From: an uncultured Mollicutes bacterium | GTDB taxonomy: Bacteria > Bacillota_I > Bacilli_A > ML615J-28 > CAG-313 | DNA length: 64,000 bases | Direction: 5' to 3' | Assembly (NCBI GenBank): GCA_900548675.1 | Contig: URLJ01000005.1 | Coordinates: forward strand, 4,412-68,411 | In this document: positions 1 through 16,873 of the stretch, piece after piece | Layout of the letters: each line of letters starts with the position of its first letter | Position numbering within the stretch: position 1 is the stretch's first letter | Program-made: the position numbers and the translations under genes | Notes under the pieces: model-generated | Seen by the model: only the letters and a program-made list of their open reading frames with translations | What the model was told of the DNA's origin: nothing | Databases searched by the model: none

Positions 1-1859
1 GACATATTGCAGTTTATCTCGGCTATATCATTGCATTCAACACCAAAATTCGTGTATATAAATTCAGATATTTTTTTCTTTGTAGGGTTCTGATACACTA
101 AAAAGAAATCATTAAATATCTTTTCTTTTGCATTTTTGTCTATTAATGATCCACCTATGCGTAATTTATTTAGATATTGTAAACAATTATATTCACTAAA
201 TAATAAGGACATTTTTGGCAAACAGTAATCAGTTGGTCCTTGAAGATAAGTACATTTATTTTGCATTCTTTTAATAAAATTTGTTGCTGAAGCATCGATA
301 TTTATTACTTCGTTGAAATTCCATGGTCTTATTGGGTCTGGTTTTCTTTCTAGCCAACTAAATTGATTATTATTGGCATTCGAAAGAGGTCCTACATAAT
401 ATGGAATATGGTATTCAAATATCGATACTATTCTTTCTATTCTTGTTAAACCATTTTCTTTTTCTAATAAAAAAGGATGGTATTTGGCTTGTTTATTCAA
501 AATAATTCGTAATTCATATAAATTAAGTTGCATTGGTATAGTAGTATTTTGGCCACTATTTTGTTTTGGCAAAAAATCGCCATTATCAATTTTTTCAATA
601 ATTCTATTAACACTCTCTTGAGCTTCTACATCCTTTATTTCTGCTAATAGTTTTTTTATATATTCTTCAAATTTTTCCTTAGAACAATGACCAAATCTCT
701 TTATTTCACCATTAGAAGAAACACCACCTACATACTTAGAATAATTTGCTTTTTTTTCATCATTATATTCTTTGAAACATTCCTTGTATTTTGCAAGAGG
801 TAGATATGTTTTTATTACTCGTTTCAATTCTTTCAAATCCTTTTGGTGCTTATCGTATGTATTAACCATAGCATTACTAATTGATTCATTGCATTTCTTA
901 GTTTCATCATTTACACCTAATAAATCTAAAAGGTAATAATAGTCCGTAATTAATTTGATGTTATCAACATAATCAAATATTCTTGATAACTCCCTAATCG
1001 TTTTTTTGTTCTCTGTTATTTTTTCTTGTATCTCTTCGTCATCCAATTTGATTTCAGAAGTTTGATAGTTCTCTTCTTTTACAAACGCAAAGTTTTTTGG
1101 ATTAGTTTTACCATAAATAAGCAACTTAATTAAGAGTTCATTCGCAAGTGTCTTCTTCTCCACACCCATTAGTTCTCTTAACTGGTTTTCACGGTCAGAT
1201 TTTGAGCCCTTAGTTAGCATTATATTTTGTAATGTATTATAAAAATTATGTTTTTCAATATCAATGATTTGAAAATATTCTTCATCGTCTTCATATTGAT
1301 TAGCATATTCTTTCAATTCATCGTTGAAGTTTTCAAATATTTCTCTTACTATTTCTGAGTCAGAAGGATTAAATGTTTCTCCTTCATTCAAAAAATGACC
1401 ACGATATTTAATAATGTGATGAATAGCTAAATATAATTCTCTAATATCAGCTCTTTCTTCTTTTTCAAGTAATGCTTTTCTTAAATGGTAAATTGTTGGA
1501 TATTTTTCAAAGTAATCTTTATCAGTATAATTATCATCAAAAAAGGTATATTTATTTTGTAATCTTTTATCTTCTATTTTATAAAATGAATCATTCAATC
1601 TTTGAAAAAAGTTTTCATCTTGCTTTTCAATTTCATTTTTAAATTCTTCTTGTAACCACTCAATTCTTTGTCTTCTTCTTCTAAGTCTTCTTCTTGAGGA
1701 ACGGTTTGTTCTTCTCTCGGCTGCAGTTTGCGCTTCATCAAACATCCTAACACCCCAAAATCTAAAACCATTCTTCTTTACTATTTCCCCATTTTCATCT
1801 ACTAGAGCCCATCCTATTGAGTTAGTCCCTATATCCAATCCTAAATTCAATTCTTTCAT
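1..1859 (-). CDS. cas9: Cas9 (type II CRISPR endonuclease), N-terminal ~620 aa; C-terminus lies beyond the window start
   Basis: Reverse-strand translation starts MKELNLGLDIGTNSIGWALV (RuvC-I motif), continues ...YPTIYHLRK...IKYRGHFLNEG...IPYYVGPL...RKPDPIRPWNFNEV, collinear with SpCas9-like proteins. Start ATG at 1857-1859. The ORF track omits it because no stop falls inside the window. Confidence 0.9.
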   Translation of the reverse strand, partial: MKELNLGLDIGTNSIGWALVDENGEIVKKNGFRFWGVRMFDEAQTAAERRTNRSSRRRLRRRRQRIEWLQEEFKNEIEKQDENFFQRLNDSFYKIEDKRLQNKYTFFDDNYTDKDYFEKYPTIYHLRKALLEKEERADIRELYLAIHHIIKYRGHFLNEGETFNPSDSEIVREIFENFNDELKEYANQYEDDEEYFQIIDIEKHNFYNTLQNIMLTKGSKSDRENQLRELMGVEKKTLANELLIKLLIYGKTNPKNFAFVKEENYQTSEIKLDDEEIQEKITENKKTIRELSRIFDYVDNIKLITDYYYLLDLLGVNDETKKCNESISNAMVNTYDKHQKDLKELKRVIKTYLPLAKYKECFKEYNDEKKANYSKYVGGVSSNGEIKRFGHCSKEKFEEYIKKLLAEIKDVEAQESVNRIIEKIDNGDFLPKQNSGQNTTIPMQLNLYELRIILNKQAKYHPFLLEKENGLTRIERIVSIFEYHIPYYVGPLSNANNNQFSWLERKPDPIRPWNFNEVINIDASATNFIKRMQNKCTYLQGPTDYCLPKMSLLFSEYNCLQYLNKLRIGGSLIDKNAKEKIFNDFFLVYQNPTKKKISEFIYTNFGVECNDIAEINCNM

Positions 1860-1891
1860 AGATTCCTCCTTTATCTTTTAAAGTCATTTTC

Positions 1892-1920
1892 TTGACATAT
1901 CTTTCTTCATTTGATATACT
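1892..1920 (+). promoter_or_regulatory. Near-consensus sigma-70 promoter (TTGACA, 17 nt, TATACT) reading away from cas9
   Basis: TTGACA at 1892-1897, a 17-nt spacer, TATACT at 1915-1920. Confidence 0.55.
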
Positions 1921-1926
1921 ATTAGT

Positions 1927-2000
1927 GTATTTAGCATACCGAGTGCAAATAAGCATTATGTGCGATACTACATGGAGGCTGGTGTCAGCCTATTTTTTTT
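1927..2000 (+). ncRNA. Candidate tracrRNA / small RNA (~74 nt) divergent from cas9
   Basis: Predicted start is ~7 nt after the -10 box. It ends in a hairpin (AGGCTG-GTGT-CAGCCT, 1976-1991) followed by ATTTTTTTT (1992-2000). The internal segment AGCATACCGAGTGCAAATAAGCA resembles the anti-repeat/nexus part of the S. pyogenes tracrRNA (AGCATAGCAAGTTAAAATAAGGC). Upstream and opposite-strand placement relative to cas9 is the type II-A arrangement. The CRISPR repeat is not in the window, so the anti-repeat pairing is untested. Confidence 0.4.
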
Positions 2001-2509
2001 AGTCTTTTTTTGATTTTTACCTTTCTAGTTAATACACATTCGAGACTAACATGGAACTGTTTTTGTAAAAACTCTTCATCAAAATCAATAAACTCCGAAG
2101 GTATAAGAATTTGTGCAGCAAATTCATTTGCCTGCCAATCGATATTTTCATATGATTTACATTCATCTACTTCAACAAAATCGAAGTCTAATATCATTGC
2201 TTGAATAAAATGAAATAATTCATGACATAATGTAAAAGCTGATCTATATATGCCTTCTTCGTACTCATTAATAACTGATTCTTTTATATATATAAAATTT
2301 TCTTTTGGGTTATATATCGCAATAGTTGATTTATCGAGCATTTCATCATCGTCATTAATTATTTGATAAGATAAATATCCCTTTTCAAATAAATCATCAA
2401 TTACTTCTAAGACAGGAAAATAACTGTCTTTTTTTATTTCATAATACGCTCTAAATGTTTCAGCAATTTTTTCAATATCACGTACGCTTAAAGGATTAGT
2501 TTTTATCAT
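1985..2509 (-). CDS. ImmA/IrrE-family zinc metallopeptidase (HEXXH)
   Basis: HELFH motif (LCHELFHFIQ), ~170 aa, overlaps the upstream XRE gene by 14 nt; this is the classic ImmR-ImmA arrangement. Confidence 0.7.
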   Translation of the reverse strand: MIKTNPLSVRDIEKIAETFRAYYEIKKDSYFPVLEVIDDLFEKGYLSYQIINDDDEMLDKSTIAIYNPKENFIYIKESVINEYEEGIYRSAFTLCHELFHFIQAMILDFDFVEVDECKSYENIDWQANEFAAQILIPSEFIDFDEEFLQKQFHVSLECVLTRKVKIKKRLKKIG

Positions 2510-2855
2510 TTTCTAGCACTTCCCTTAATTTTTCTATTAGGTCTTTATCTGCGTTTTTTATTTTTCTTGCAAATAACAGTGTTATTTCTTTTTGGCTTTC
2601 GTTCATTTTTGAAAGTTCTAATGAAACTTTTTCATTAGTTTCTTGTATTACTTCTAACAATTCGCTTTTTTCATTTTCAGTTAAATTATATATATCTGAA
2701 ATTTTTTCTGCATAATTAAGAGGTATGTTTTTTCGCCCTACTTCCATGGCAGATAAAAAAGCAGCACTGATATCCATTTTTTTTGCCATATCTCTAAGTG
2801 AGTCATTTTCTTTTTTTCTTATTGTTCTAATATACTGTCCAAATTTACTTAACAT
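2496..2855 (-). CDS. XRE-family HTH transcriptional regulator (ImmR-like)
   Basis: N-terminal HTH (YIRTIRKKENDSLRDMAKKMDISAAFLSAME), 119 aa, translationally coupled to the ImmA-like gene. Confidence 0.75.
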   Translation of the reverse strand: MLSKFGQYIRTIRKKENDSLRDMAKKMDISAAFLSAMEVGRKNIPLNYAEKISDIYNLTENEKSELLEVIQETNEKVSLELSKMNESQKEITLLFARKIKNADKDLIEKLREVLENDKN

Positions 2856-3024
2856 TTAAATCACCATTTTAATTTTACACTATATTAAATTTATTGTCAA
2901 CTATTTTGGTTTACACTTCGCTATATTTTGACAAATATCAACATTTATAACCATTCCCATAAATAAAAAAGTTTTGTAATAAGCATTTTATTACAAAACT
3001 TTTATTTAATATATAAACTATTTT

Positions 3025-3774
3025 TTACAATTCTTTCAACAACTTTTCAAAAGCATTTGCATTTAGAATTGTATTTGAGACAAAGTTTCCTTTATAAAAA
3101 TTGGCCCAATTATTAATTACGCAAGGGGCATTTTTAGCTTTTTCTAAAGAATCAATTTTTACAAAATTTAACTTGATGTTATTATTTTCAGCAAATTCTG
3201 TTAATTCTTTTATTTCGTATACTACATATGGACATTCATTTGTGTAATAGATAGTAAAGTCATTGCTATCTATTTTCATAAGTTTCGCGGTAGAAGAAAA
3301 CTTTGGAGTTTCGTTATTATCAAATGATAATGCCAAAAGTTCATAATCACATATACTATCTACTACTTTAAAACCAAAGTGTTCAAAGAATTTCTTTTCA
3401 CCCAAAAATGGTTTTTTCTTTTTCGAGCTTAAAGTACAAATACCACTCATTCCTTTTTTCTTGGCATCTTCTATCGCATATTCTAACAATTCTTTGGCGA
3501 TACCTTGTCCCTTAAATGATCCTGCTACCCATAAACAATATATATATAAATAGTTTGCACCATTTACTGGAACCCACGCTGATGATAAGGGTTCATATTC
3601 GATAAAAGTTTTCCCTCTAGCATTTAGCTTTCTGAAAACATGTCCATTAGATAATTTGTCTTTTAACCATTCTTTTTTTGCTTCCACCCCTGTTTGGTGC
3701 TTTTTATCACCGATAGCACAACAGATATGTTCATTATCGATATTCTCTAATGTTAAATTAATATATTCATTCAT
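3025..3774 (-). CDS. GNAT N-acetyltransferase with YoaP-like C-terminal domain
   Basis: GNAT acetyl-CoA motif (VAGSFKGQGIAKELL). Likely start at MNEYINL (3774), which has a GGAG RBS; the ORF track extends to 3810. Confidence 0.65.
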   Translation of the reverse strand: MNEYINLTLENIDNEHICCAIGDKKHQTGVEAKKEWLKDKLSNGHVFRKLNARGKTFIEYEPLSSAWVPVNGANYLYIYCLWVAGSFKGQGIAKELLEYAIEDAKKKGMSGICTLSSKKKKPFLGEKKFFEHFGFKVVDSICDYELLALSFDNNETPKFSSTAKLMKIDSNDFTIYYTNECPYVVYEIKELTEFAENNNIKLNFVKIDSLEKAKNAPCVINNWANFYKGNFVSNTILNANAFEKLLKEL

Positions 3775-4287
3775 TTTAATAAATCTCCACTTATATTTCT
3801 CAAGATACAAGTTAATTATATCATTTTATGATGCTTTTCGTTAGTTTTATGATTATGTTTTAGAAAAATAGTTATTTTTAATTTATCATATTTTAAATTA
3901 TATTCCTTTTAAAAAAACTTCTTTAGTCATTTTACATAATTAATAAGTTATATAATTGGTATAACCTAACTTTAAATATGTTTATCTTGTGTTAAATCCT
4001 TTAAATTTGATTTCTTAGATTTTCTTATAATCAGAACAATTAATAATTATTTCGTTTATCTACCTTCCTTACTTTCAATTGCTAATTATTTAGTTAATAC
4101 TTTCGTTAATATTACTTTTTAAAAAAAGCGGTGGCAATAGTGTCACCGCGAATAATGATTATAAATTTACTTTTCTCCCTTACCTTTATTATTATTGGTT
4201 TCTGCAAACATGCATTGATTTTCAACAAATTTTTTTATAAATTTTCCTTTGGTTACACTATAGGCTATCATAGGTTACCTCCGATTG

Positions 4288-5115
4288 TTATATTATTTTA
4301 TTGCTTTTTTCTTTATTGCATCTCTTACATAATGTTTGTAAATTTTCATATGTTGATTTTCCACCTTTTGAAATCGGATAAATGTGATCTATTTCAAGAT
4401 ATTCTGGATTATATCTTCTATGACACATTCTACATCTATAACCATCTCTTGCATAAATAGAAAATCTCATTTTGTTAGAAACTTTTGCTCTTTCTACGCA
4501 GCATAAAGAATCCCATATTTCTCTATTATTATAAAACCTACCATTTCTATCATTCAATAAATCTATTGTATGGCAAACTTCATATTCACCAAAGGAACAA
4601 CTTTTCCTAGATATTAATCTTCCACCCATATTAACATAACAAAGTATAACATCCAACTTAAATTTTGTTATCGGCTTCAATTGTCTAGTTTTAACTAACT
4701 CTTTTTCAATGCTTATCAATTTATTTACGTTTAATTTTACAGAGTCAATATCAAATAAACCAAATTGTATATTTTTAATATTGTTTAAATACTCAGTGTA
4801 CATATACTGATTATTATTTGCTTTATTAATAACATCTAAATATAATTGCCTATTATTTGGAAACTGCAAATCGTAAACTAAATAATTATAACAAGATACA
4901 CTATCGTACATTTTTTCATTATCATACGTATGAGTTAATTTGGGATTATTAACTACTTCAAAACGATAATTCTTATTAAGTTTAGTTATTTCTTTAATAG
5001 CTTTGCTGTGTGTTTTAACAAAATTATAATATCGTGTGTGAAATAAATAATATGATACTACGATGACTACATTAACTATGATAATAGTCATTACAAATAA
5101 TAGAAACCAAAGCAT
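4288..5115 (-). CDS. Membrane-anchored HNH endonuclease-domain protein
   Basis: N-terminal TM helix (LLFVMTIIIVNVVIVVSYYLF). C-terminal HNH (CRMCHRR...LEIDHIYPISKGGKSTYENLQTLCKRCNKEK). Confidence 0.7.
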   Translation of the reverse strand: MLWFLLFVMTIIIVNVVIVVSYYLFHTRYYNFVKTHSKAIKEITKLNKNYRFEVVNNPKLTHTYDNEKMYDSVSCYNYLVYDLQFPNNRQLYLDVINKANNNQYMYTEYLNNIKNIQFGLFDIDSVKLNVNKLISIEKELVKTRQLKPITKFKLDVILCYVNMGGRLISRKSCSFGEYEVCHTIDLLNDRNGRFYNNREIWDSLCCVERAKVSNKMRFSIYARDGYRCRMCHRRYNPEYLEIDHIYPISKGGKSTYENLQTLCKRCNKEKSNKII

Positions 5116-5687
5116 CTAATCAACCTCCTTCAAATTTATTATACTTTTTTAAATAATGTCTTAAGAGTATCATCTTTTCTTTTCCGATATTCTTTCAGCA
5201 TTTTTTCAAAAAACTACAATTTTTACCTATTATATACATATTATAACATTATTTTTTCTACAACACAAATAAAATTTTTCAAAATAACATATTTTTATAT
5301 AAAAAAACTATGATTATTTCAAAACACATCATAGTCATAATTAATTTTTTCAAAAAAAGTTACTTAGATTATTTAAAAACATTATTTATTGTTGTATATT
5401 GAATATTCCATACATTTTTCGCTTTTTCATCTATATTCGTGTATAATCTAAACTGAAATATTAAATGAACAGTTTAGATAAAAACACGATTTTTTTATTT
5501 ATGATATACTTTTATTGAAGTTATATCAGCTTCATTTAATATTTTATTATACCATATAGTTTTTTTGATTCAATCCAATCATATTCCAATTTACTCTAAG
5601 AACCTTAGAGTTTTTGTTTTTTATCCATTTTTTTAATTACTAAATTAAAAGAGGACACTTAAGTCCTCCATTAGTTTGATATATTAA

Positions 5688-7007
5688 CTAGTTTAATGTA
5701 TGGTCAAATTTATAGATGTACCCAAATTCATCTACTAATTCAAATGAGTATCGCTCTCCTAAATAAACTTGTTTAGAACTTATCTCAGGACCAACTTTTT
5801 TTATGATGCAGTAGATAGTTTCTTCTTGGACACCTTTGAATTTATTTTTGAATTCTCCCAAAGTAGAAAAATTTGTTTCTTTAACTAATTGGTTGTTAGC
5901 ATCATATTCATATATTATATATTGTTTTGGTGAATACTCATGAACAATATTTAATTGATAATTCATTTTAGTGCTGTAACTAGGATACTTTACATCTTTA
6001 GAGTTTTTTAATTTTTCACTTATTACATACCCACTCACATCTATTTTTGTAGTTTTAGAAAATAATTGTGGTTCTACTGATTGAACCAGTGTAAAACCTT
6101 TTTCTGAGTTATCGATTACAAATATGTTCACTTTTTTATTCAGTAAAACCCTAATTACTAATTCAATATCAATACTTACAACTCCATTATCGTTTTGAAG
6201 AAAATCATAATGATAATCAGCAAAATAATTATGTACGACAAGGGTTTGATTATAGTCACTACCAAGTGCAATTATATAGTATGGGTATTCGTCATCGCTA
6301 GGTTTATCAAATCTATCATTATTGTCCCATGAAGTACCCCAAAGAGGAATACTTGTAGGACTAGTATCATTTAGTGTAATTACAAAACCATATATAACAT
6401 AATCATCTAAATATTCTTCAATAACTATAAGTTTTTCAAAACTATACTCTTTATGTGTCACATTATACATTCCCGAAAGTTTAACATAATATCCTTTTTT
6501 TAAAAAATTGTAGTTAATCTCGTTGCCATATCTATCTAGTTTAAATTTTAATTGATTCCAAACCACTTCATATTGATTCAAACTATCAGACACTATTACC
6601 TTATCGCTTTCTATTTTCACAATTTCTCCACGAGTACTAAAATCTTGAAAAATAGGTTTTTCATTATTTATCCTATTAACTCGCCCAATTATGAATAAAA
6701 TTACAAATGTCAAAATCAAAATTGAAATTGCTCCAACAATTATTGTGATTTTTAAATGTTTTTTATTGTGTTCAACTTCTTGATTATTCTTAAGCGTAAT
6801 GCATTTTATTTCTTCTTCAGTAATCAAATCATTAACCGCCAATCCAAAAGTCGCCGCAATATTATTAAGCATATCAATACTTGGAATACCTCTATTTTGT
6901 TCCCATTTAGCAATTAATGATCTTGAGACAAATAGTTTGTTCGCCATTTCTTCTTGAGTAAGATTATTATCTACTCTAATTTTTTTTATTTTTTCATAAA
7001 ACTTCAT
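5688..7007 (-). CDS. Membrane-bound XRE-family HTH regulator with large extracytoplasmic domain
   Basis: N-terminal HTH (LTQEEMANKLFVSRSLIAKWEQNRGIPS), a single TM (ITIIVGAISILILTFVILFII), then ~330-aa unknown domain. Confidence 0.65.
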   Translation of the reverse strand: MKFYEKIKKIRVDNNLTQEEMANKLFVSRSLIAKWEQNRGIPSIDMLNNIAATFGLAVNDLITEEEIKCITLKNNQEVEHNKKHLKITIIVGAISILILTFVILFIIGRVNRINNEKPIFQDFSTRGEIVKIESDKVIVSDSLNQYEVVWNQLKFKLDRYGNEINYNFLKKGYYVKLSGMYNVTHKEYSFEKLIVIEEYLDDYVIYGFVITLNDTSPTSIPLWGTSWDNNDRFDKPSDDEYPYYIIALGSDYNQTLVVHNYFADYHYDFLQNDNGVVSIDIELVIRVLLNKKVNIFVIDNSEKGFTLVQSVEPQLFSKTTKIDVSGYVISEKLKNSKDVKYPSYSTKMNYQLNIVHEYSPKQYIIYEYDANNQLVKETNFSTLGEFKNKFKGVQEETIYCIIKKVGPEISSKQVYLGERYSFELVDEFGYIYKFDHTLN

Positions 7008-7498
7008 AAGATAGTTTCCTCCTCGTCAGTATCATTATATTGTATAACTTATATATATTCAAGATACTATTTGAAATGATACGATTTATATCATTATATA
7101 GTTATTAGCTACATTTCAATTTTATCAAATTGTTTATATTTTTTTAGTATTTTAAATAAGAAATAATGTATTTTCGCAAACACTTTAATAAAAGTTAGTA
7201 TTTTTTCAAAATTATTTTAAATCATTGCGTTGAAGTATTTCAAATTACATTAAACATTAAAAACAGGAACCAGTTTGATTTACTGAATCCTGTTATTTAT
7301 TAAAAATTCTTATTATTTGGTATGATTCATTCTATAATTTGATTTTGCAAATGATATATAAGTTTTTATTGATATTATTAAACTTTAATACTTTATCTTT
7401 TGAATTTGATACTATACTTTTTCAATGATTAATAAAACGAATTACAACATTTTTTCAAATATGTAATTTTCTAATTAGGAAATAATAAATGAAGTTTT

Positions 7499-8098
7499 TT
7501 AGCTAATTTTAGTAAGAAGCGGTAATAAAGCTATTCCGACATCAACGCTTTTATCAAATATCCATTTACCAATATTTTTTAATTTCAACCATTTTTTCTC
7601 TTTTGTATCTTTTGATTCTAAAATCGTCTGGATGAGTTCAATTTGATTTTTTATTTCTTCTTTTTCTGCATCCGTCATTTGTAAACCATCAATTTTATTA
7701 ATAGCCTCTGAATAAATATTTCCATTATTTATAATATTATTATTCCCATAAATATTATAATTGGTCGTACTAGGGATTCTTGTATTTTCTTCAGTTGAAA
7801 AATTATTTTCACATATATCAGTAATATGCATTTCCAATACTTTAAGGTTTTTTAAAAGTATGGACTTGTCGTGAATTAATGGTTCATCGCAGTTCACATA
7901 TGTATACACATTCCTAGTTTCTGATAGTTTAAATGATGCAACAGACTTACCATTTTTAACATTACTCGATCTTTTGGTATAAAATTCTGCTATAGGCATG
8001 TATTCATCACCTATTTTATTAATAATGTTTTGGTCGCTTTCATTTTCTAGTTGTTTGATTAATTTTTGAACTTTTATTAAATTATCATTATGTAACAT
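7499..8098 (-). CDS. Hypothetical protein with C-terminal hydrophobic tail
   Basis: 199-aa ORF. No recognisable motif. Confidence 0.4.
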   Translation of the reverse strand: MLHNDNLIKVQKLIKQLENESDQNIINKIGDEYMPIAEFYTKRSSNVKNGKSVASFKLSETRNVYTYVNCDEPLIHDKSILLKNLKVLEMHITDICENNFSTEENTRIPSTTNYNIYGNNNIINNGNIYSEAINKIDGLQMTDAEKEEIKNQIELIQTILESKDTKEKKWLKLKNIGKWIFDKSVDVGIALLPLLTKIS

Positions 8099-8361
8099 TT
8101 TCTTCTCCTATTAACTTATATATAATCGTGAGTAATTCATTTCATTTTTCAAAATGTACATAAATATTATATCATAAATTAAATATTTTTAACTGAATTA
8201 ATGATTACAATGTTTTAGTTATTTAACTTTGATAATTACGTAACTATTCTTTCTAACTCTTAAGACTATAATCTATATGTTACTAAATTTAATATGACTA
8301 CAGTAATAATATTATTTCACATTGTTAGCATTTTTAAAATTGTTAAGAATTTTTTAAAAAG

Positions 8362-8396
8362 AAAAAGCTGATACTTTTTATTGTATCAGCCTATCT
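8362..8396 (-). terminator. Rho-independent terminator of the helicase operon
   Basis: GCTGATAC/GTATCAGC 8-bp stem followed by a T-run when read on the minus strand, just downstream of the helicase stop. Confidence 0.55.
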
Positions 8397-8688
8397 ACGT
8401 ATCATGTGTAAGATTAGCTATTATGATGCAATTTGCGTACACCCCTTAAAAAGTGCGTACAGTCTGGCAAAATTTATGTACACTTATTTTGCTTATCTTA
8501 ATCTCTACTTTATGCCAAATAGTTCTTTGAGTAGTGTAACGCTCTATTTATGAATTCTTTCCCATATTCAGATAATAAATCGCATAATTTCAAAAATTAA
8601 GCATTCCTCGATTTTTTTGTCTGTCGTTTAGATCAAGTATATAATAATACTTTTTTTCCTTTTCTAAATTTTTATACTCATTATATTG

Positions 8689-11418
8689 TTATTTAGACCC
8701 CAGTAATTTTTTCCTTTGTTTCAAAATATTTGCATCATTATCATAGTTTTGAATTTTAAAAGAAGAAACAATTTTCTCTTCTGTTTCAGGTGTCCAATAA
8801 ATAGTTAAATTCTTTTTAGCTCTTGTAATTGCAGTATAAAATATATTATGCGTAATATTTTCCTCAACCTCATTTGAAATCAATATTTTTACCGAATCAT
8901 ATTCTAATCCTTGAGCTTTGTGAATAGAAAGTGCATAGGCTATTTGAAATGGGATTGACAAATTGTATCCTGTGTCTTTATCGTAAACATCTTCAGAATA
9001 CTTATTAAATGCAAATCTAACTATAGATTCACCATCTACTATTGATAATAATTTAACGTCACAATTTTCACATAATACTGGATTAAGTACTTTATTTATA
9101 CGAATGGTAAATAAAAAACCATTAGAATTTTCTTCTATTTTTTCAATTACACCTTTAAGATTGTTATAAAAAACATCCTTATATTTTAAAGAATCATGAA
9201 AAATTATAGGGTCACCTTCTTTAAAGATATATTGTTTCCATCTATGTACTTCATTTTTATTTGCATTTTGCAAAACTTTATTTAAATTATTGATTCCATA
9301 TAATCCATCATAATTTAAACATAAAATTATTTCATCTCGATAATTTTTCGCAAAAAGACTTTCATCAAATTTATGTGATATTTCAATCATCGCAAGCTTT
9401 TCTTGAATATTAGGTCCTAGATTTCTAACTTCTTTCCAAAAATCTATTAATGTTTCACTATCCGTCCTATACTGTGATTTTAAATCTACAATACATCTTT
9501 TAGGTAAAAATTTTCTTAAAATCGCAAACCAATTACCAAATGTAATTGACTGAATTTGAAATATATCTCCTAACAGAAGCACTAATTTTGGCTTCGTTTG
9601 ATTAAAAATATTAAATGCTTCTTTTGTGCTAATTGTTGAACATTCATCAATTATCAATAAACCAATATTTGAATTTGAATCATATTCTTTTAGATACTTA
9701 GTTGTGGTCATATATTGGGCAGTATTGTCTTCGAACTTTCTCCTCATATTATCTACAGCCGGATTTGTAGATGCAATACAAACCTTAGTTATATCTTTTA
9801 GTACTTTTAATACATAATTTGCAAAATATGATTTCCCTGTTCCTGCCGCACCATATACTGCAAAAACGCTACTATTTTCAAAAAGTGATTTAAGTGCGCA
9901 TTCTTTATCAATATCAATAAAAACTAATCCTAATTCGGATATTCTTGCTTCGCAGTATTCTTTATAGCAAGAGAAATTAATTGCATCAACATAACTATTA
10001 ATATGATTTAAAACATTAATGGTATCCAATTCATTTTCAGCCAAATAAGTATAATTGCCAAATTGAAGAATTCTTCTATGCAAAAGAGATGATTTTTGAA
10101 ACTGCGAATTATACCGCTCAATTGTATCTTTTAAGTTCCCACTACTGATCCTTTCATTTGGAATATAAATACAAGAAGACTCGTTTGAAATGTTAAACAC
10201 TGTTCTAGCCATTATCTCAGTAGCATGTTCTTTATAATCAAACAATTCTATTAAATCCCCAAATGAAGGATTGTGCCCTAATAGGCCAGATGAAAAAGGT
10301 GATTTTTCAAATGCATAAACCCCTCTTTTTAAATTCATATCACTTAAAGAATCTTCCTCATTATAAGAGATTTGTTTTCTTAAAATATCATTGTTCATAG
10401 AATGCAACAAATACAAAAGTGTTTTATATCCTGTTTTCTTACTTTCGATAATTTGTCTAGATTTATCAAGCGTTTTGGATATAATAGTCCTTTTATTTGT
10501 GAAAACAATATTATAAAATTCTTTATAATCCTCATCATTGAATTTAATAATATCTACAAGGTTTAGTTTGTTAGTTTTTAAATAATCCATCAATCTACAA
10601 TAATCGCTAGATTTACTAGAATATGATGTAGAAGCTCCAACAATAAGACTAAGTTTTTCTATTTCACAAGGCCTAATAGCAATTGTAAATCTGGTAATTA
10701 CAACATAAGAAATCATTTGGTCAAAAAAAGTTATTTGTTTTAGAAGGTAATTTGCTTTAATTGCATAATTATCAGGAATATCTAACAATGAAAATGCAAT
10801 AAATCTATCAAATTTGCTATTATTATCAAGTGCATCGGTAAGTACGTATTCATAAAATAGAACATTATCAATATATATCAATTTTTTCTTTTGAATATAA
10901 TATGTTCCTTTTTCCCCTGAATTTTCAAGCATCTCTTTCTTGCTTAAAATTTTAATTATTTCTTTATAATATTTTTGGAATGAATCATCCAAATCGAAAG
11001 GAAATAATGAAAGATTAGTTAACACCTCAATATGATATTTACTATGCAAAAAATCTTTAACTTCAAAAAGTTTAGAAGCATATTTTAAGCCTAATCGCTC
11101 AGCATATTCACCAACAAATATCTGATGTCCAACCGAAGCATTTAAGTTGTCGTAGAATTTAGATAAGAAATTTAAATTGCTATTTGATTTACAATATTTA
11201 TTTGCCGCATCCATTTCTGAATATCTTGCCTCATATGATTTATTTTCATGCGCTTTAGCGACAAAACATTCAACAGAACTAACAAAATCTCTTATTCCTT
11301 CCAACAATGATTCTGTAAGTTTTATTCTATCTTTTAATGAGTTGAAAGTTTTATTAACGCTATTACTATACTTTTCTATCTCTCTTTTCCAATATTCTAA
11401 ATCTCTATGTTCAATCAT
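8689..11418 (-). CDS. RecD/Pif1-like SF1 helicase (AAA_30 plus UvrD_C_2-type) with ~480-aa uncharacterised N-terminal domain
   Basis: Walker A VYGAAGTGKSYF, Walker B LLIIDECSTIS, C-terminal motif ALSIHKAQGLEYDSV...YTAITRAKKNL. The N-terminal half shows no recognisable motifs. Confidence 0.75.
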   Translation of the reverse strand: MIEHRDLEYWKREIEKYSNSVNKTFNSLKDRIKLTESLLEGIRDFVSSVECFVAKAHENKSYEARYSEMDAANKYCKSNSNLNFLSKFYDNLNASVGHQIFVGEYAERLGLKYASKLFEVKDFLHSKYHIEVLTNLSLFPFDLDDSFQKYYKEIIKILSKKEMLENSGEKGTYYIQKKKLIYIDNVLFYEYVLTDALDNNSKFDRFIAFSLLDIPDNYAIKANYLLKQITFFDQMISYVVITRFTIAIRPCEIEKLSLIVGASTSYSSKSSDYCRLMDYLKTNKLNLVDIIKFNDEDYKEFYNIVFTNKRTIISKTLDKSRQIIESKKTGYKTLLYLLHSMNNDILRKQISYNEEDSLSDMNLKRGVYAFEKSPFSSGLLGHNPSFGDLIELFDYKEHATEIMARTVFNISNESSCIYIPNERISSGNLKDTIERYNSQFQKSSLLHRRILQFGNYTYLAENELDTINVLNHINSYVDAINFSCYKEYCEARISELGLVFIDIDKECALKSLFENSSVFAVYGAAGTGKSYFANYVLKVLKDITKVCIASTNPAVDNMRRKFEDNTAQYMTTTKYLKEYDSNSNIGLLIIDECSTISTKEAFNIFNQTKPKLVLLLGDIFQIQSITFGNWFAILRKFLPKRCIVDLKSQYRTDSETLIDFWKEVRNLGPNIQEKLAMIEISHKFDESLFAKNYRDEIILCLNYDGLYGINNLNKVLQNANKNEVHRWKQYIFKEGDPIIFHDSLKYKDVFYNNLKGVIEKIEENSNGFLFTIRINKVLNPVLCENCDVKLLSIVDGESIVRFAFNKYSEDVYDKDTGYNLSIPFQIAYALSIHKAQGLEYDSVKILISNEVEENITHNIFYTAITRAKKNLTIYWTPETEEKIVSSFKIQNYDNDANILKQRKKLLGSK

Positions 11419-11436
11419 AATTATTACCTTTTATCT

Positions 11437-11820
11437 TTAATTGCATAGTGTGATTTGTCTCTTAACATACTTTGAAATCTTTTTTATGAGAATTGTGACT
11501 CTCTTAAACATCATACTTTCTAAAGTTTTCAGCTTGTTCCAACACTTTTTCATATACTTCGGCATTCCATTCTTATAATCAACCTCAGGCTTAGAAGTAA
11601 CAAGGATTACGCATCTTTGGTTGCCAATAACACGTTTGATTTCGACACTTATATATTGAGAAAAATCTCCATTATTAAAACCATTTAATCTAACTCTATC
11701 TATAGCATTTCCTAATTTTAATTCTTTATATTTACCAACAAACTCTGTTACAGGCACCCATCTACTAACTCCTTCGGTATTAGGTTTTACCAATTTTATA
11801 AACAATTCTACCTTAATCAT
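11437..11820 (-). CDS. Small hypothetical protein, upstream partner of the helicase
   Basis: 127-aa ORF, 18 nt upstream of and co-oriented with the helicase gene. Confidence 0.45.
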   Translation of the reverse strand: MIKVELFIKLVKPNTEGVSRWVPVTEFVGKYKELKLGNAIDRVRLNGFNNGDFSQYISVEIKRVIGNQRCVILVTSKPEVDYKNGMPKYMKKCWNKLKTLESMMFKRVTILIKKISKYVKRQITLCN

Positions 11821-12336
11821 TTTTATTAACCATCCTATAAATAAGTTAAAAACATACGAAAATTATAACACTTTTTTGAGAAAATTACAAGTAGATTGCG
11901 GAATAATGACAGAACTAAAAAAAGTTTTTATAAAAAATATAGTTTGTTCCGTAGGAATATATAAAAAGAAAAAGAGCCTCGTAAAAATGCCGTTTTGCAC
12001 TTCTACAAGGCTCTATAGTTTGTTGGCGGAAAGGATAAAGGTTCCTATCCACAAAGAAAAAAGGCTTGATAACAAATGTATCAAACCTATTGCTTCTTTA
12101 ATGTGAAAGGTAAGTTTTGTTAATACAATGCACCCTCTATAGATGAAGGTGCACCCTCTAACCCTATATTTTTAAGCATATACACAAGTGACGTGTGACT
12201 AGCGTGACAGATGTGACACTTAGGTATGATATGCATATTTTATACAACAAAAGTATTTGAAAAACAAGTTTAATACAACTTGACTTTAAACCTCTTTAGA
12301 GTGATAGATAGACACAGCTTTAAGGAGGTTTTTATT

Positions 12337-12516
12337 ATGCGTCATAAACAAATTGAAGGCGAAATAAAATATAGATTTGCATGTCTTCTTCTAAATCAAA
12401 TGCTTAAAGATAAATTTATAACAAAAGATGAACTTATATTATTTAAGAAAAAGCTCATTAAAAAATATAAACCTATAATTAGTGTGTTGGAGGAAATCGA
12501 TGAAAAAGATAATTAA
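12337..12516 (+). CDS. Small hypothetical protein preceding the recombinase remnant
   Basis: AAGGAGG RBS before ATG (MRHKQIEGEIKY...). About 60 aa. Confidence 0.4.
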   Translation: MRHKQIEGEIKYRFACLLLNQMLKDKFITKDELILFKKKLIKKYKPIISVLEEIDEKDN

Positions 12517-13945
12517 AGAAATTACTCCAATAAAGAAAAAGGTTGAAAATGCACCTACTAAAAAGTGAGTCGCAGCATATGCAAGAGTATCAACTGAACA
12601 AGATGAGCAGCTTCATTCTTTACAGGTTCAAAGAGATTATTATGAAAATTATATTAAATCTAATCCTGACTGGGAACTCGTTAATATTTATTATGATGAA
12701 GGAATTACAGGTACTTCTTTAAAACGTAGAAAATGATTTAATCAAATGATAACAGATGCTCTTGATGGGAAAATAGATGTTATATTAGTTAAGTCAGTAT
12801 CTAGATTCGCTAGAAATACAATTGATGCTCTTCAAACAACAAGAGATTTAAAATTAAAAGGCGTACCTGTATTTTTTGAAAAAGAAAACATTGATAGTAT
12901 GGATCCTAAAGGTGAATTCATGCTTACACTATTCTGTTCTTTCGCTCAGGAAGAATCCAAATCAATATCTGATAACATTAAATAGTCAGTTAGAAATGGA
13001 TATAAACATGGGAAATTCACAATGCATACTGAGCATTTATTAGGTTTTAAGAAAACAGCAGCAGGTAAAATTATAATTGATAAGGAACAGGCAAAACTTG
13101 TTAAAATGATTTATAAACTTTTCTTAGAAGGTTTAAATAATCATCAATTACAAGTATACCTAAAAAACAATAATATCTTAACACCTCTAGGTTCTAAAAA
13201 ATGGACTTATGCAGTCATTAATTCAATTCTTACTAATGAAAAATATTGTGGAGATGCAATACTTCAAAAGAAATTCTCAATTGATGTAGTACTTCATACT
13301 TTAAAAAAGAATGAAGGTGAATTACCTCAATATAGAATATATAATAATCATCCTGCAATTATACCAAAGCCAACATGGGAATATGTTCAAGAATTATATT
13401 CAATTAAATATAATGATAACTCATATCCACTAAGTAATAAAATTGAATGTGGATTATGTCATAAATTTTATCAGCCTAGAAGAAATGATAGAAAAAAGGA
13501 TTATGGCAAAGTTCTTCTATATTGGGTTTGCAATTCAAGATACAAAAGAAAATGTAAGGGAATACTTATTCATGATGAACAAATGATTGAAGCATCTACT
13601 TTAGCATTTGAAAATTTATATAGTTCTTATAAAGATGAAATTATAAATGATATAAGATTAATTGCATCTAAAACAATAACCACTAAAACCAAACAAAAAG
13701 AATTTAGTAACAAGTTATCTTCTATCTATCCCTTAAATAAGGATATTATAGATTACTTTACTAAATTCTTAATTAGAAAAATATATGTTGTTGATGATGA
13801 CTATCTTCTTTATGAATTTATTGACGATACCTTATATCGTTATGAACTAGGTACATGGTCTATAAAAGAAAACAGAAAGATTAATCGTAAACGCAGAGAG
13901 TTTAGAAATAAAGACTATTGGGGAAAGAAACCTGAAGTAGATTAA
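12503..13945 (+). pseudogene. Large serine recombinase (resolvase/invertase N-domain plus recombinase domain), disrupted by at least 3 stops/frameshifts
   Basis: Frames give MKKIIKEITPIKKK...TKK*, VAAYARVSTEQDEQLHSLQVQRDYYENYI...GITGTSLKRRK*, ...IDVILVKSVSRFARNTIDALQTTRDLKLKGVPVFFEKENIDS...*, then the 307-aa ORF 13022-13945 (recombinase/zinc-ribbon-like: CGLCHKFYQP...C). The serine-recombinase catalytic region (AYARVS) is split across frames. Confidence 0.7.
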
Positions 13946-14253
13946 TCCTCAATAATTTCATAAGCAACTCTAGAGCCTTTTACTCTTACTGCATGGAATC
14001 TTCTATTATTTGCTTTCCAATGAGGAAACTTATCAGCTTTTTCTTCATTAGTATCACGATAGCAAATTATAATATTATCTAAAACATCAGCTCCACCTTT
14101 TGATAATGGTCTAATGTGATCTAATGTAGGATGATAATTACTATTAGGATTTCCACAAGCAGATTTTTTCATTAATCTACCAGCATAGTCCTTTACATCT
14201 TCTTTTTTGCCATAATAATGATTCCAGACATCGATTGTATTGTACTTTGACAT
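13942..14253 (-). CDS. Small HNH endonuclease-family protein, partner of the viperin-like gene
   Basis: HNH motif YHPTLDHIRPLSKGGADVLDNIIICYRDTNEEKADKF. Likely start MSKYNT at 14253 with AGGAGG 7 nt upstream; the ORF track extends to 14313. Confidence 0.65.
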   Translation of the reverse strand: MSKYNTIDVWNHYYGKKEDVKDYAGRLMKKSACGNPNSNYHPTLDHIRPLSKGGADVLDNIIICYRDTNEEKADKFPHWKANNRRFHAVRVKGSRVAYEIIED

Positions 14254-14278
14254 TTTGAATACCTCCTTTCTAAAGTGA

Positions 14279-15103
14279 TTAAATGTATCTTTTAATATAA
14301 TTGGCATAATCAATATTTAATAGATTAATTGCTTCTTCTATATCATAATCAAATATTGAAATATTGCTTATATGGGCATTATTTGTTGAAATATTACCTT
14401 GTGAGTCAATAATTATATATGAGTTTTTCATCTCATCAGAACTTTCAAATATATGGTCAAATTTGATTTTTGATAAGAAGGCTTCTGCTTCTTCTTTATT
14501 AACCATATTATTTTTATTTTTTAGGTCATTATCATCACAATGCATCTGAAGAATTTTATATCTATCTGGTTTAATTTCATTTATAAACGAATTAAAATCC
14601 TCATCAATATTTAACTTAGAAAGGCAAGTATTAATTTTTAATTTAATACCTGCTTTTTTAATGCTATTACAGATGTGAATTAATTGTTCTTTAGATAAAG
14701 TATTAGCTTTAAAACATCTTCCAATTAAAACATTTGTATCATAATCTAAAGAATCTACACTAATTCCAATTGTACTTATTTGATTTTTGTATCTTTCAAT
14801 AAATGAATCATCCAAATAATAACCATTAGTAATAATAGATACTTCAATACCTTTTGATGCAATATAATCGATTAATCTATCAATATTTCTAGACATTAAG
14901 GGCTCCCCTCCTGCGAGATTGATTCTGCCCTTAATTTCATTATCGTTAAAATATTTATAAATTTTATCTACTGCAACCTTTAGTTCATCAAATGACAACT
15001 CACAATTTTCTTTTTTAACAAAGCAATGCTTACAATGAAAATTACAGAAATCTGTAAAATGAAGATTTATACAAGAATACATTTCCATCACCTCGGGCTT
15101 CAT
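14279..15103 (-). CDS. Prokaryotic viperin (pVip)-like radical SAM enzyme
   Basis: CNFHCKHC (CxxxCxxC) inside NLHFTDFCNFHCKHCF (compare viperin NYHFTRQCNYKCGFCF). GGEP SAM motif, NVLIGR, KINTCLSKLN, RYKILQMH. The C-terminal MKNSYIIID matches the viperin-specific tail (MKDSYLILD). Confidence 0.7.
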   Translation of the reverse strand: MKPEVMEMYSCINLHFTDFCNFHCKHCFVKKENCELSFDELKVAVDKIYKYFNDNEIKGRINLAGGEPLMSRNIDRLIDYIASKGIEVSIITNGYYLDDSFIERYKNQISTIGISVDSLDYDTNVLIGRCFKANTLSKEQLIHICNSIKKAGIKLKINTCLSKLNIDEDFNSFINEIKPDRYKILQMHCDDNDLKNKNNMVNKEEAEAFLSKIKFDHIFESSDEMKNSYIIIDSQGNISTNNAHISNISIFDYDIEEAINLLNIDYANYIKRYI

Positions 15104-15187
15104 TATATATTAATAAATAAATTAATATCGGGCCTTCAGGCGAAAATAAAAACATCAGCTAAATTAATAACTGATGCTTCAATCACT

Positions 15188-15391
15188 CTATTTCGTTAGA
15201 GTATTATGTAAAATTTGTAAATTAAGGAAATTATCAGCTTTTGGTATATATCCTGAACGCCATTTGTAGATTGTTTTTTCATTAACATCTAGTAGAATTG
15301 ACATTTCATAATAAGAATACTTAACTGTTAAATCTCCTATTAATCCGATTACAATTTTACGAATTTCTTCCTTTGATATTAAATCAAACAT
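15188..15391 (-). CDS. Small HTH DNA-binding protein
   Basis: 67 aa; EKTIYKWRSG HTH-like segment. Sits between the viperin and nucleotidyltransferase modules. Confidence 0.4.
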   Translation of the reverse strand: MFDLISKEEIRKIVIGLIGDLTVKYSYYEMSILLDVNEKTIYKWRSGYIPKADNFLNLQILHNTLTK

Positions 15392-15471
15392 TGTAACAAC
15401 CTCCTCTGGTCAAACCAGGGCGGTCAACAATCAGAAAATTGTTACAGGTATATTATATCATCTTTTTTAAA

Positions 15472-16137
15472 TCATTGGAATCTTATACCAAAATGTTTTA
15501 ATGTTTCAACGACTGATTCATTTAACAATTGATAGGATTTCTTCTTATTTGGTTCAACATCATCTTTATGATCATGACGTTTCTTTTTATATACTTTTCG
15601 AAGATACTCCCACATTTCAGGGCCTTCAATAAGACTTAATCTTTCACGATATTTATTCATTTCTTTTCTTTTAGCCCATTCATAGTCTTCGTTATTAGCA
15701 TTATTAGTATTTTTCTTATTATAAAGAATATAGAAATTACCGTCTTCATCATATGTTGTTATAATGATATCAAAGCCATATCCTTTGTTAATATTTTTTG
15801 TAGTTAAGGCTTGAGTGCTATCCTCACAGAAACTGAATCCTTTAGGTTTAAACTTATCAAATGTAGTTCTAAATATATCTTTAAATTTTTTACAGTCTCT
15901 ATTCCAATTATAATTATTCGGAATAGATTGCATAACAATTTGGAAATCTAAATCAAAGAAATTCTCATTGCATTTTCTAATTACCATATTTCTACTACCA
16001 CTACCAATTGGAGAGTGTGAAAAAGTAATTTTATAATTCTTTTTTATATATTTTTGAACACTATTAATCCAATTAATAAATGTATCTCTTGGAATCTCTA
16101 GTTCCTTTTTCTTTACATAATCACACATAAAAATCAA
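15472..16137 (-). CDS. Pol-beta-superfamily nucleotidyltransferase (minimal nucleotidyltransferase / SMODS-like)
   Basis: HSPIGSGSRNMVIRKCNENFFDLDFQIV (GS...DxD) plus a downstream acidic GFDIIITTYDEDG. Overlaps the upstream HEPN gene by 4 nt. Confidence 0.55.
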   Translation of the reverse strand: MIFMCDYVKKKELEIPRDTFINWINSVQKYIKKNYKITFSHSPIGSGSRNMVIRKCNENFFDLDFQIVMQSIPNNYNWNRDCKKFKDIFRTTFDKFKPKGFSFCEDSTQALTTKNINKGYGFDIIITTYDEDGNFYILYNKKNTNNANNEDYEWAKRKEMNKYRERLSLIEGPEMWEYLRKVYKKKRHDHKDDVEPNKKKSYQLLNESVVETLKHFGIRFQ

Positions 16138-16820
16138 TCCTCCGTATATAGCAAGAACTTATAATAAGCACTTGCTATATTTTCTTTTGTCTTTTGATTA
16201 GGTACTTTAAGATTTTTGATACACCCATCTTTATAATCAGATGGCAGCATTTCAACTAAAGCACCTATTCCTTTTAGTGTTTCTTCAACCGTCGATTCAA
16301 AATTATAATCAAATAATAAAGGTGAGTGATGCATTACACTATTTCTTAGATTTATTGTTAAATCTAATTTGCTAGTATCATAAGTTTGTGAATCATAATC
16401 TTTTATAAAAGACACTAAATCTCCAAAGTTTAAAGCAAACTTTTTATAAAAGTCTGTTATTTCATCCGTTGGATTAGTCTTTCTAATACACTTTGGCAGT
16501 CCTTTAAAATAATGATATTCTGGTTTCTTTAATTCAGCTTCAGGATCGAAATCAAATCTTAGTAAAATATCATTTCTGATATATTCTTCCAAAGTACCTA
16601 AATATTTAAATAGAACATCTTTTATTGCCTTATCGAGGATAACAAATGAATTGACATCAGCAAAAATAACATTAGAATCAACCTTACTCAATGCTTCAAA
16701 TATAATTCTATATTGCTGAACACCTCGAATTTTAGAATACTTCTCAAATGTGCTTTTATCATCATTATTAAGTTTTTCAATAAATTCTTTAAATCCCATA
16801 TTCTTCCTCCGTTTTAGCAA
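16134..16820 (-). CDS. Abi2 (AbiD/AbiF-like) HEPN-domain protein
   Basis: R-x4-H HEPN motif in LRNSVMHHSPLL. ~228 aa, typical of the Abi_2 family. Translationally coupled to the nucleotidyltransferase gene. Confidence 0.5.
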   Translation of the reverse strand: MLKRRKNMGFKEFIEKLNNDDKSTFEKYSKIRGVQQYRIIFEALSKVDSNVIFADVNSFVILDKAIKDVLFKYLGTLEEYIRNDILLRFDFDPEAELKKPEYHYFKGLPKCIRKTNPTDEITDFYKKFALNFGDLVSFIKDYDSQTYDTSKLDLTINLRNSVMHHSPLLFDYNFESTVEETLKGIGALVEMLPSDYKDGCIKNLKVPNQKTKENIASAYYKFLLYTED

Positions 16821-16873
16821 TTAAATATCTCAGGTTATTTAAATACTATAATTTTGCCATTTTTCACACGTTT

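Follow-up and report, generated by a model that had tools for sequence, protein, structure and literature searches.

The 64,000-nucleotide (nt) stretch of DNA analysed here, referred to below as the window, comes from an uncultured Mollicutes bacterium (contig URLJ01000005.1, positions 4,412 to 68,411). Positions 1927–2000 of its forward strand are very probably the gene of the trans-activating CRISPR RNA (tracrRNA; CRISPR stands for clusters of regularly interspaced short palindromic repeats) of a type II-A CRISPR-Cas9 system, the predicted product being a helper RNA of the kind that, to our knowledge, every Cas9 system needs. The identification follows from the position of the gene, its promoter and terminator, the complementarity of its product to the cognate repeat, and its conservation with compensatory changes in related loci. 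The tracrRNA is ordinary for a type II-A locus and changes nothing that is known about tracrRNAs: in position, order of modules and size it agrees with that of Streptococcus pyogenes and, to a greater degree, with the validated one of Faecalibaculum rodentium. It does complete the parts list of a type II-A system from an uncultured, low-G+C member of the Bacilli, namely a Cas9 of 1389 amino acids (aa), a 36-nt repeat and a compact tracrRNA, and a single-guide RNA could be designed by joining repeat nt 1–22, a GAAA loop and window 1927–1992.

The tracrRNA gene upstream of cas9

As the first-pass annotation of this DNA had stated, the window opens inside cas9: a stop-free frame of 619 residues (3–1859 on the minus strand, with a translation that starts MKELNLGLDIGTNSIGWA) leaves the window at the left. 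The edge cuts the gene, and the part inside the window (1–1859, minus strand) comprises its 5′ 45%, codons 1–619 of 1389, including the RuvC-I motif DIGTNSIGWA, the bridge helix and the recognition (REC) lobe. This fragment matches Pfam Cas9_REC at 1e-87, and the Cas9-BH bridge helix as well. A ribosome-binding site, GGAGG, can be read from the sequence on the same strand at 1865–1869, 5 nt before the ATG. Between the cas9 start (1859) and the stop codon of an ImmA-like gene (1985–1987) there is a gap of 125 bp, in agreement with the length given for this region in the annotation. The tracrRNA gene is intergenic and lies immediately upstream of cas9, from which it diverges, with 67 nt between the cas9 ATG and the start of the tracrRNA and 32 nt between the ATG and the tracrRNA −35 box.

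The near-perfect sigma-70 promoter that had been proposed on the strand opposite cas9 is borne out by a match at 11 of the 12 consensus positions. It extends over 1892–1920 of the plus strand and consists of TTGACA (1892–1897), a 17-nt spacer and an extended −10 element, TGaTATACT (1912–1920), in which TG precedes the TATACT box at 1915–1920 (consensus match only). Sites of at least 11/12 are infrequent in the window, with 12 in 128 kb (both window strands) by a promoter scan that amounts to a crude consensus search. Transcription is predicted to start at G1927, seven bases past the −10 box, and from the promoter/terminator geometry the primary transcript would measure 72–74 nt from G1927 to the U tract (1927–2000, plus strand), in line with the earlier estimate of about 74 nt; without the U tail the RNA has about 66 nt. 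The terminator, which also forms the 3′ hairpin of the RNA, occupies 1976–2000 of the plus strand, with the stem AGGCUG/CAGCCU at 1976–1991, the loop GUGU, and then an A and eight U residues (1993–2000). The hairpin is thus present as first described, whereas the T9 tail attributed to it is in fact T8. It overlaps the last codons and the stop (1985–1987) of the convergent ImmA-like gene, and two terminator-like sites occur in this kilobase compared with 0.2 expected from shuffles. The tracrRNA gene accordingly has its own promoter and Rho-independent terminator, both kept in its homologues (consensus matches only). A promoter and a Rho-independent terminator flanking the anti-repeat are a supportive criterion for tracrRNAs (Chylinski et al. 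2013, PMC3737331).

The complete type II-A locus and its array

No CRISPR array was found inside the window, either by a tandem-repeat search or by a search with the predicted repeat allowing three mismatches. An exact look-up of the neighbouring 174-aa ImmA-like protein led to four contigs. One of these, L007 (ENA ERZ1304599, a metagenome contig of 111.5 kb; related loci are denoted by such L numbers throughout), matches the reverse complement of window 1–12000 with 100% identity and can therefore stand in for the left flank, with L007 positions equal to 12510 minus the window position. Other relatives are more remote: the Cas9 fragment finds only 34–38% identical proteins in reference genome contigs, and the best match in a large protein collection is 52% identical.

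In L007 the cas9 gene is complete (10651–14820) and encodes 1389 aa in a single frame. The protein is intact, with the RuvC-I Asp, the HNH DxDH motif and the RuvC-III HHAHDAY motif. The cas1 and cas2 genes lie between cas9 and csn2 (PF09711, Pfam Cas_Csn2; 15989–16630), and an array of seven 36-nt repeats with 30-nt spacers (16669–17100) starts 38 nt after csn2, about 4.2–4.6 kb beyond the left window edge. The repeat is GTTTGCTAGGTATGCTAAATATAATTGCTACTATAG, and its last copy in the L007 array is degenerate. The remaining cas genes and the array are consequently seen where the annotation had expected them, to the left of the window. All four genes, cas9, cas1, cas2 and csn2, form one operon with the array downstream of csn2, and it is the presence of csn2 that makes the type II-A label assigned earlier the right one.

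The leader adjoins csn2 and ends in GGATTTGAG, which we take to resemble the leader-anchoring sequence of S. pyogenes. It holds an inverted copy of the first ~16 nt of the repeat that covaries with the repeat in three loci, and the leader together with the first repeat folds into a strong hairpin, with z = −5.1 in L007 (16610–16704, about 4.1–4.2 kb left of the window), −5.0 in L004 (15965–16060) and −6.7 in L024 (15990–16090). This hairpin matches the published type II-A leader/first-repeat hairpin, which, in the account of Liao et al. 2022 as relayed by PMC12080349, suppresses extraneous crRNA (CRISPR RNA). Arrays of sister strains hold at least 16 repeats (L006) and 49 repeats (L009) compared with the seven of L007, a variation in length such as ongoing spacer acquisition would give. 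With an intact cas9, an array length that varies between strains and a leader hairpin, the CRISPR-Cas9 system looks functional as far as its sequence can tell.

Several details of the arrays can be added. In L007 (16705–17030) spacers 2 and 4 are identical and spacers 3 and 5 nearly so, indicating an internal duplication. All L007 copies of the repeat end in G and all L009 copies (12533–15900) in T, and in L033 (16745–16830) a partial repeat abuts the first repeat without a spacer. Type II-C arrays have repeat-internal promoters with an extended −10 box. In the L007 array (16669–17100) the 3′ end of the repeat, TGCTACTAT (repeat nt 26–34), combines TGn with a 4/6 match to the −10 box. This resemblance is probably due to chance, since L033, L024 and L004 do not share the 3′ 14 nt of the repeat. 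The 49 spacers of the L009 array gave no megablast match in a phage collection, and as a result no protospacer-adjacent motif was derived.

Pairing between the repeat and the anti-repeat

Complementarity between the repeat and window 1927–1955 had been set beforehand as a check on the tracrRNA prediction, and when the check was run with the L007 repeat it returned 6 + 14 bp at 1927–1950. On the plus strand, GUAUUUAGCAUACC at 1927–1940 pairs with repeat nt 22–9 (nt 9–22 being GGUAUGCUAAAUAU) in an upper stem of 14 bp with a terminal G-U; GAGU at 1941–1944 forms an internal loop, or bulge, facing repeat nt 7–8 (UA), and is invariant, as GAGT, in all homologues; and GCAAAU at 1945–1950 pairs with repeat nt 6–1 (GUUUGC) in a lower stem. 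The anti-repeat accordingly lies at the 5′ end of the RNA, as had been proposed, although it measures 24 nt (1927–1950) and not the suggested ~28 nt. The proposal that this segment complements the 3′ half of the repeat proved wrong: it complements the 5′ 22 nt, which constitute the 3′ handle of the crRNA, and nothing in the tracrRNA pairs with the last 14 nt of the repeat.

The duplex energy (duplexfold) is −25.8 kcal/mol compared with −10.5 ± 3.1 kcal/mol for shuffled RNA. When both strands of the 64-kb window were scanned, position by position, with the first 24 nt of the repeat, the sites at 1923–1927 of the plus strand ranked first, with −26.9 to −25.8 kcal/mol, and the best unrelated site reached −22.4 kcal/mol. 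In the 20.5-kb L007 locus, with the array masked, no site comparable to a second anti-repeat was found. Together, the scans of the window and of the locus indicate that there is one anti-repeat in the locus, situated exactly at the predicted transcript start.

Conservation and covariation in related loci

Strains L006, L008 and L009 have exactly the same tracrRNA sequence as the window. Beyond these strains, a homologous small gene is set divergently beside cas9 in four related loci, L033, L023, L024 and L004. The Cas9 proteins of the first three are 66%, 52% and 46% identical to that of the window, and the L004 protein is 46% identical over the window fragment and 49% in a full-length alignment. 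L023 has the tracrRNA homologue without an array, its contig ending inside the gene. TTGACA, the 17-nt spacer, GAGT, GCAAAT and the AAGC that follows are invariant in all four loci, and the promoters of these homologues match the consensus at 11–12 of the 12 positions. The relatives with arrays have repeats of their own, GTTTGCTAGGTATGCTAAATATGC... in L033, GTTTGCTAGGTATGTTATTC... in L024 and GTTTGCTAGTTATGTTATTTATGG... in L004, and the anti-repeat of each fits the repeat of its own locus. A scan of viral contigs with the conserved 15-mer CGAGTGCAAATAAGC gave 13 chance matches, none of them with tracrRNA context.

Covariation was assessed in an alignment that links repeat nt 1–22 and the tracrRNA of each of the four array-bearing loci (window/L007, L033, L024 and L004). 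Standard pairs occupy 96.3% of the pair cells, and 4 of the 14 upper-stem pairs have changed on both sides. In controls where the partner was slid by 1–3 columns, 30–54% of the cells were paired and there were almost no double changes. The sole unpaired cells belong to L024 and lie upstream of its predicted start, hence outside the RNA; for the window, L004 and L024 alike, the start is predicted to fall on the base where pairing begins. The six pairs of the lower stem are invariant in the four loci, and in the more distant L025 the C6-G pair is replaced by A-U. The repeats of the window and L033 are identical at nt 1–22 and differ in the last 14 nt, which is the pattern expected if pairing constrains the first 22 nt only.

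The 3′ half of the RNA is also similar in form among the loci. The segment at 1951–1966 of the plus strand consists of AAG, a nexus-like hairpin of three pairs (G1953-C1963, C1954-G1962 and A1955-U1961) with the loop UUAUG, and GAUA. The hairpin has the same position and form in L023, L024 and L004, reading GCA-UUAUG-UGC in the window, GCA-UUA-UGC in L023, GCA-UUU-UGC in L024 and GCG-UUU-CGC in L004, so that L004 has G-C as the third pair where the other three loci have A-U, a compensatory change (in a small sample of four sequences). It presumably parallels the nexus structure of S. pyogenes, AAGGCUAGUCCGUUAUCA; the S. pyogenes scaffold string is confirmed in the literature as part of the standard SpCas9 guide scaffold. 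Terminator hairpins with U tracts are found at the same place in L024, L004 and L033, where the sequence differs and the form is kept, and in L027 the terminator stem shows a compensatory change of G1978/C1989 to C/G.

One could suppose that a promoter, a hairpin and some complementarity came together by chance in AT-rich DNA, and that the hairpin merely ends the ImmA-like gene. Promoter-like sites of 9/12 are in fact no commoner here than in shuffled sequence, and the hairpin, which overlaps the ImmA-like stop, is kept in L027 without the tracrRNA body. Such a coincidence would nevertheless have had to place the region first among about 64,000 positions for repeat pairing and to produce four compensatory pairs. 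Moreover, the RNA is conserved beside cas9 in L004 and L024, both of which have no ImmA-like gene, and the T tract belongs to the strand of the tracrRNA and not to that of ImmA. We disfavour chance as the explanation and regard it as extremely improbable.

Some results do weigh against a tracrRNA at this place. The array was read in the identical contig L007, outside the window sequence itself. The margin of the pairing over the best background is modest for AT-rich DNA (−26.9 vs −22.4 kcal/mol), and the duplex stops at repeat nt 22, so that the position of the RNase III cut in S. pyogenes is no simple guide to the one expected here. For the free RNA of the window, structure prediction does not give the 3-bp nexus-like hairpin as the lowest-energy fold and has the anti-repeat folding against the nexus region (z = −2.2), which we treat as irrelevant to the paired state. 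A comparison with covariance models, suggested in the first-pass annotation, gave no Rfam match in the region at the gathering score or at E ≤ 10, and at these thresholds the search returned tRNAs and noise only. Considering the sequence diversity of tracrRNAs (PMC3737331), this null result limits the reach of the models, not the identification.

Comparison with characterised systems

Among solved structures the closest Cas9 is that of F. rodentium (FrCas9, PDB 9jwk; E = 3e-165, aligned residues 5–1229), and the S. pyogenes protein (SpCas9) follows behind it as a clear homologue (E = 1e-128). The FrCas9 locus is of type II-A and has the order cas9-cas1-cas2-csn2-array (Cui et al. 2022, PMC8931148). 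Its tracrRNA, validated by small-RNA sequencing, measures 71 nt without the poly-T and is located upstream of cas9 and opposite to the cas genes, and the crRNAs carry 20 nt of repeat (PMC8931148). For this relative it has been shown that the tracrRNA is expressed, is processed by RNase III together with the crRNA precursor, and is needed for interference by Cas9 (PMC8931148). The tracrRNA sequence AATTAACAAGA-TGAG-TTCAAAT-CAGG... is to be read against the repeat GTTTGAGTGTCTTGTTAATT... (PMC8931148). Like the window, F. rodentium has a compact divergent tracrRNA with a short anti-repeat (22 nt in that species) at the very 5′ end; the same succession of an upper stem, a (U)GAG(U) loop, a lower stem of 6–7 nt on GUUUGN, and then hairpins; and a 36-nt repeat beginning GTTTG. 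Outside the GAGU/CAAAU core, however, the two have no alignable sequence. The repeat starts GTTTGAGTG... in F. rodentium and GTTTGCTAGG... in the window, the upper stem has 11 bp compared with 14 bp in the window, and the middle section of the FrCas9 RNA is longer. The two Cas9 proteins are about 35–40% identical, which is a rough estimate from a partial alignment and not a computed value. While the F. rodentium RNA is experimentally validated, that of the window is predicted from sequence.

An upstream, divergent position of the tracrRNA is typical of most type II-A loci (PMC3737331). The position in the window mirrors the tracrRNA locus of S. pyogenes SF370, as had been pointed out, in that both genes lie upstream of cas9 on the opposite strand. 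The order of modules is also the same, with an upper stem, bulge, lower stem, AAG, nexus (a nexus-like hairpin in the window), 3′ hairpin(s) and U tract, and the sequence parallel drawn in the annotation holds at 17 of 23 positions by manual count (AGCATAGCAAGTTAAAATAAGGC in S. pyogenes, AGCATACCGAGTGCAAATAAGCA in the window). In S. pyogenes two promoters give rise to two primary tracrRNA forms, of 171 and 89 nt, and the nexus is followed by two hairpins. Unlike S. pyogenes, the window has room for one promoter, one 73-nt form and one 3′ hairpin. A long ‘natural single-guide’ form of the tracrRNA such as that of S. pyogenes was considered and rejected, because the cas9 ATG and the tracrRNA start are only 67 nt apart.

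By analogy with F. rodentium and with S. pyogenes, whose tracrRNA paradigm reportedly goes back to work by Deltcheva et al. in 2011, the following scenario can be proposed. A near-consensus sigma-70 promoter back to back with the cas9 start would direct the synthesis of a ~73-nt RNA. Its first 24 nt would pair with nt 1–22 of each 36-nt repeat along the precursor of the crRNAs (pre-crRNA), in a lower stem of 6 bp and an upper stem of 14 bp with the UA/GAGU internal loop between them, and the remainder, composed of AAG, the 3-bp nexus-like hairpin, a linker and the terminator hairpin, would serve as the handle held by Cas9. Cas9 would bind the repeat:anti-repeat duplex, RNase III would cut it, and the resulting crRNA:tracrRNA would guide DNA cleavage. 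We infer the transcription of the gene, its exact 5′ end, RNase III processing and loading of the RNA into Cas9.

A gene pair upstream of cas9

The gap that contains the tracrRNA gene is bounded on its right by two genes on the cas9 strand, which overlap one another by 14 nt. The nearer one encodes an ImmA/IrrE-type metallopeptidase of 174 aa (1985–2509, minus strand; Pfam Peptidase_M78 3e-7, PADLOC capP 4e-10 and RmrA 1e-11), the other an Xre-type helix-turn-helix (HTH) protein of 119 aa (2496–2855, minus strand; Pfam HTH_3 1e-8, PADLOC capH 3e-6). The HTH gene is preceded by a strong, near-consensus promoter, TTGACA-17-TAAAAT, at 2872–2900 of the minus strand (11/12), which is conserved in L033 (12/12) and L027. 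No minus-strand promoter or terminator was detected by consensus scan between the HTH + ImmA pair and cas9. At 2967–3003 two perfectly matching 16-nt arms enclose a 5-nt loop, and a T run comes next on the minus strand; this inverted repeat was missed by the scan because of the G+C criterion used. It separates the HTH promoter from a GNAT/YoaP acetyltransferase gene (3025–3810, minus strand), of which it is a candidate AT-rich intrinsic terminator. Taken together, these features suggest that the pair could share a transcript with cas9.

This arrangement raises the question whether the tracrRNA could double as a cis-antisense partner of the cas9 mRNA, a role that would be additional to its function as tracrRNA and would not replace it. 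According to this proposal, cas9 has no promoter of its own and is transcribed from the HTH promoter at 2900–2872 (minus strand) through the tracrRNA gene; the 5′ untranslated region of cas9 would then be perfectly complementary to the tracrRNA, which could lead to titration or create an RNase III site coupling the levels of both RNAs. The layout is favourable to the idea, as there are only 32 nt between the cas9 ATG and the tracrRNA −35 box, no promoter-like minus-strand site was found in 1700–2700, the 11/12 promoter at 2900–2872 is followed by no minus-strand terminator before cas9, and the hairpin at 1976–1991 has no U tract behind it on the minus strand. The same layout occurs in L033, where the promoter scores 12/12. 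On the other hand, L024 and L004 do not have the HTH + ImmA pair, and their promoter candidates on the cas9 strand are weak (9/12) and overlap the 5′ region of the tracrRNA, from which it follows that a weak private cas9 promoter is possible in the window too; the promoter scan itself is a crude consensus search. We consider a second, antisense role of the tracrRNA rather doubtful.

Homologous HTH + ImmA pairs are found, within defence islands, at L033 9610–10680, L027 5600–6832 and L030 5655–6519. In L033, where the peptidase is 68% identical, the pair occupies the same place by the 66%-identical cas9. The 73%-identical peptidase of L027 lies beside a different Cas9 of 1074 aa, which has its own tracrRNA between cas9 and cas1, and a 51%-identical homologue is part of another defence-like operon (L030–L032). 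The pair thus holds this position by two unrelated cas9 cassettes, the SpCas9-like one of 1389–1404 aa and the 1074-aa type. Next to the ImmA-like stop, L027 contains at 6490–6560 (aligned to 1962–2000) the last ~38 nt, that is, the linker and terminator, of a tracrRNA of the window type. This remnant indicates that an exchange of cas cassettes broke inside the tracrRNA gene. No palindromic operator shared by L007, L027 and L033 was found near the HTH promoter.

The pair resembles CapH + CapP in being a two-gene module, HTH and PF06114 peptidase, beside an immune operon. Published CapH/CapP pairs share a promoter region with the operon under their control and lie upstream of it on the opposite strand (Lau et al. 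2022, doi 10.1101/2022.04.27.489752), and the partners reported for them are CBASS, BREX, Pycsar, DISARM and Bub. A CapH/CapP switch is further characterised by cleavage of the repressor upon activation by ssDNA, with de-repression of the operon. In the window the HTH and PF06114 genes are adjacent, as in CapH/CapP, but whereas CapH + CapP diverge from the operon, the window, L033 and L027 all have the pair and cas9 on one strand. A limited literature search found no association of CapH/CapP-like pairs with CRISPR-Cas, and the PADLOC scores fit RmrA, toxin–antitoxin or mobile-element ImmR/ImmA equally well. It is unlikely, in our estimate, that cas9 expression in this lineage is wired to a repressor and protease switch of the CapH/CapP kind. 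Under such a switch, transcripts of cas9-cas1-cas2-csn2 would begin at the HTH promoter and traverse the tracrRNA gene in antisense, and the operon could be inducible by DNA damage or phage infection. If the pair does control cas9 transcription, this would represent a new regulatory input into CRISPR-Cas9. The pair may be a regulator of cas9, a toxin–antitoxin or mobile-element module, or the mere marker of a recombination hot spot.

Related cas9 genes and genomic surroundings

Considering the fate of related loci, the tracrRNA gene might be a decaying, disused relic of an inactive CRISPR locus. One in-frame nonsense codon interrupts cas9 in each of L004, L024 and L025 (40–46% identical over the window fragment), and L027 retains only the 3′ 38 nt of this tracrRNA type, which together indicate that loss does occur in the lineage. 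In the window strain, by contrast, cas9 is a single frame of 1389 codons with catalytic motifs, the tracrRNA is identical in four strain variants, array length differs (7 to 49 repeats), and the anti-repeat fits the repeat at every paired position. These data make a relic highly unlikely.

The nonsense codons in the related genes are followed by a continuing frame and occur at codon 1061 in L004 (TAA), codon 392 in L024 (TAG) and codon 829 in L025 (TAG). Protein searches also returned many N-terminal-only Cas9 products that stem from long contigs, which suggests frequent inactivation of cas9 in this clade. Recoding of UGA as the reason for the split cas9 genes of the relatives was rejected because the in-frame stops are TAA, TAG and TAG.

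The window is chromosomal. It contains housekeeping genes (UvrA, pyruvate kinase, PPi-phosphofructokinase and PotABCD), and positions 1–6000 gave no megablast match in phage or plasmid collections. Its G+C content is 25–32%, and the nearest named relatives are uncultured Bacilli, Anaeroplasma and ‘Staphylococcus sp. CAG:324’.

The CRISPR locus lies within a variable defence island, which comprises window 4288–11418 and 19628–25842, the upstream regions of L006 and L033, and L007 17559–20342. On the window side the island includes an HNH nuclease, a 439-aa HTH protein, a RecD2-like helicase and a homologue of a PLD-like anti-phage protein; sister strains have BrxL, NERD and an SLFN-like helicase, and a PLD-DEAD-DUF3427 helicase is located beyond the array. 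Strains that are 99% identical differ in gene content past 3.9 kb from cas9. Elsewhere in the window, and unrelated to the tracrRNA, a gene at 41084–47896 of the minus strand encodes a 2270-aa RHS/YD-repeat protein with an RHS-associated core domain, which is probably a polymorphic toxin.

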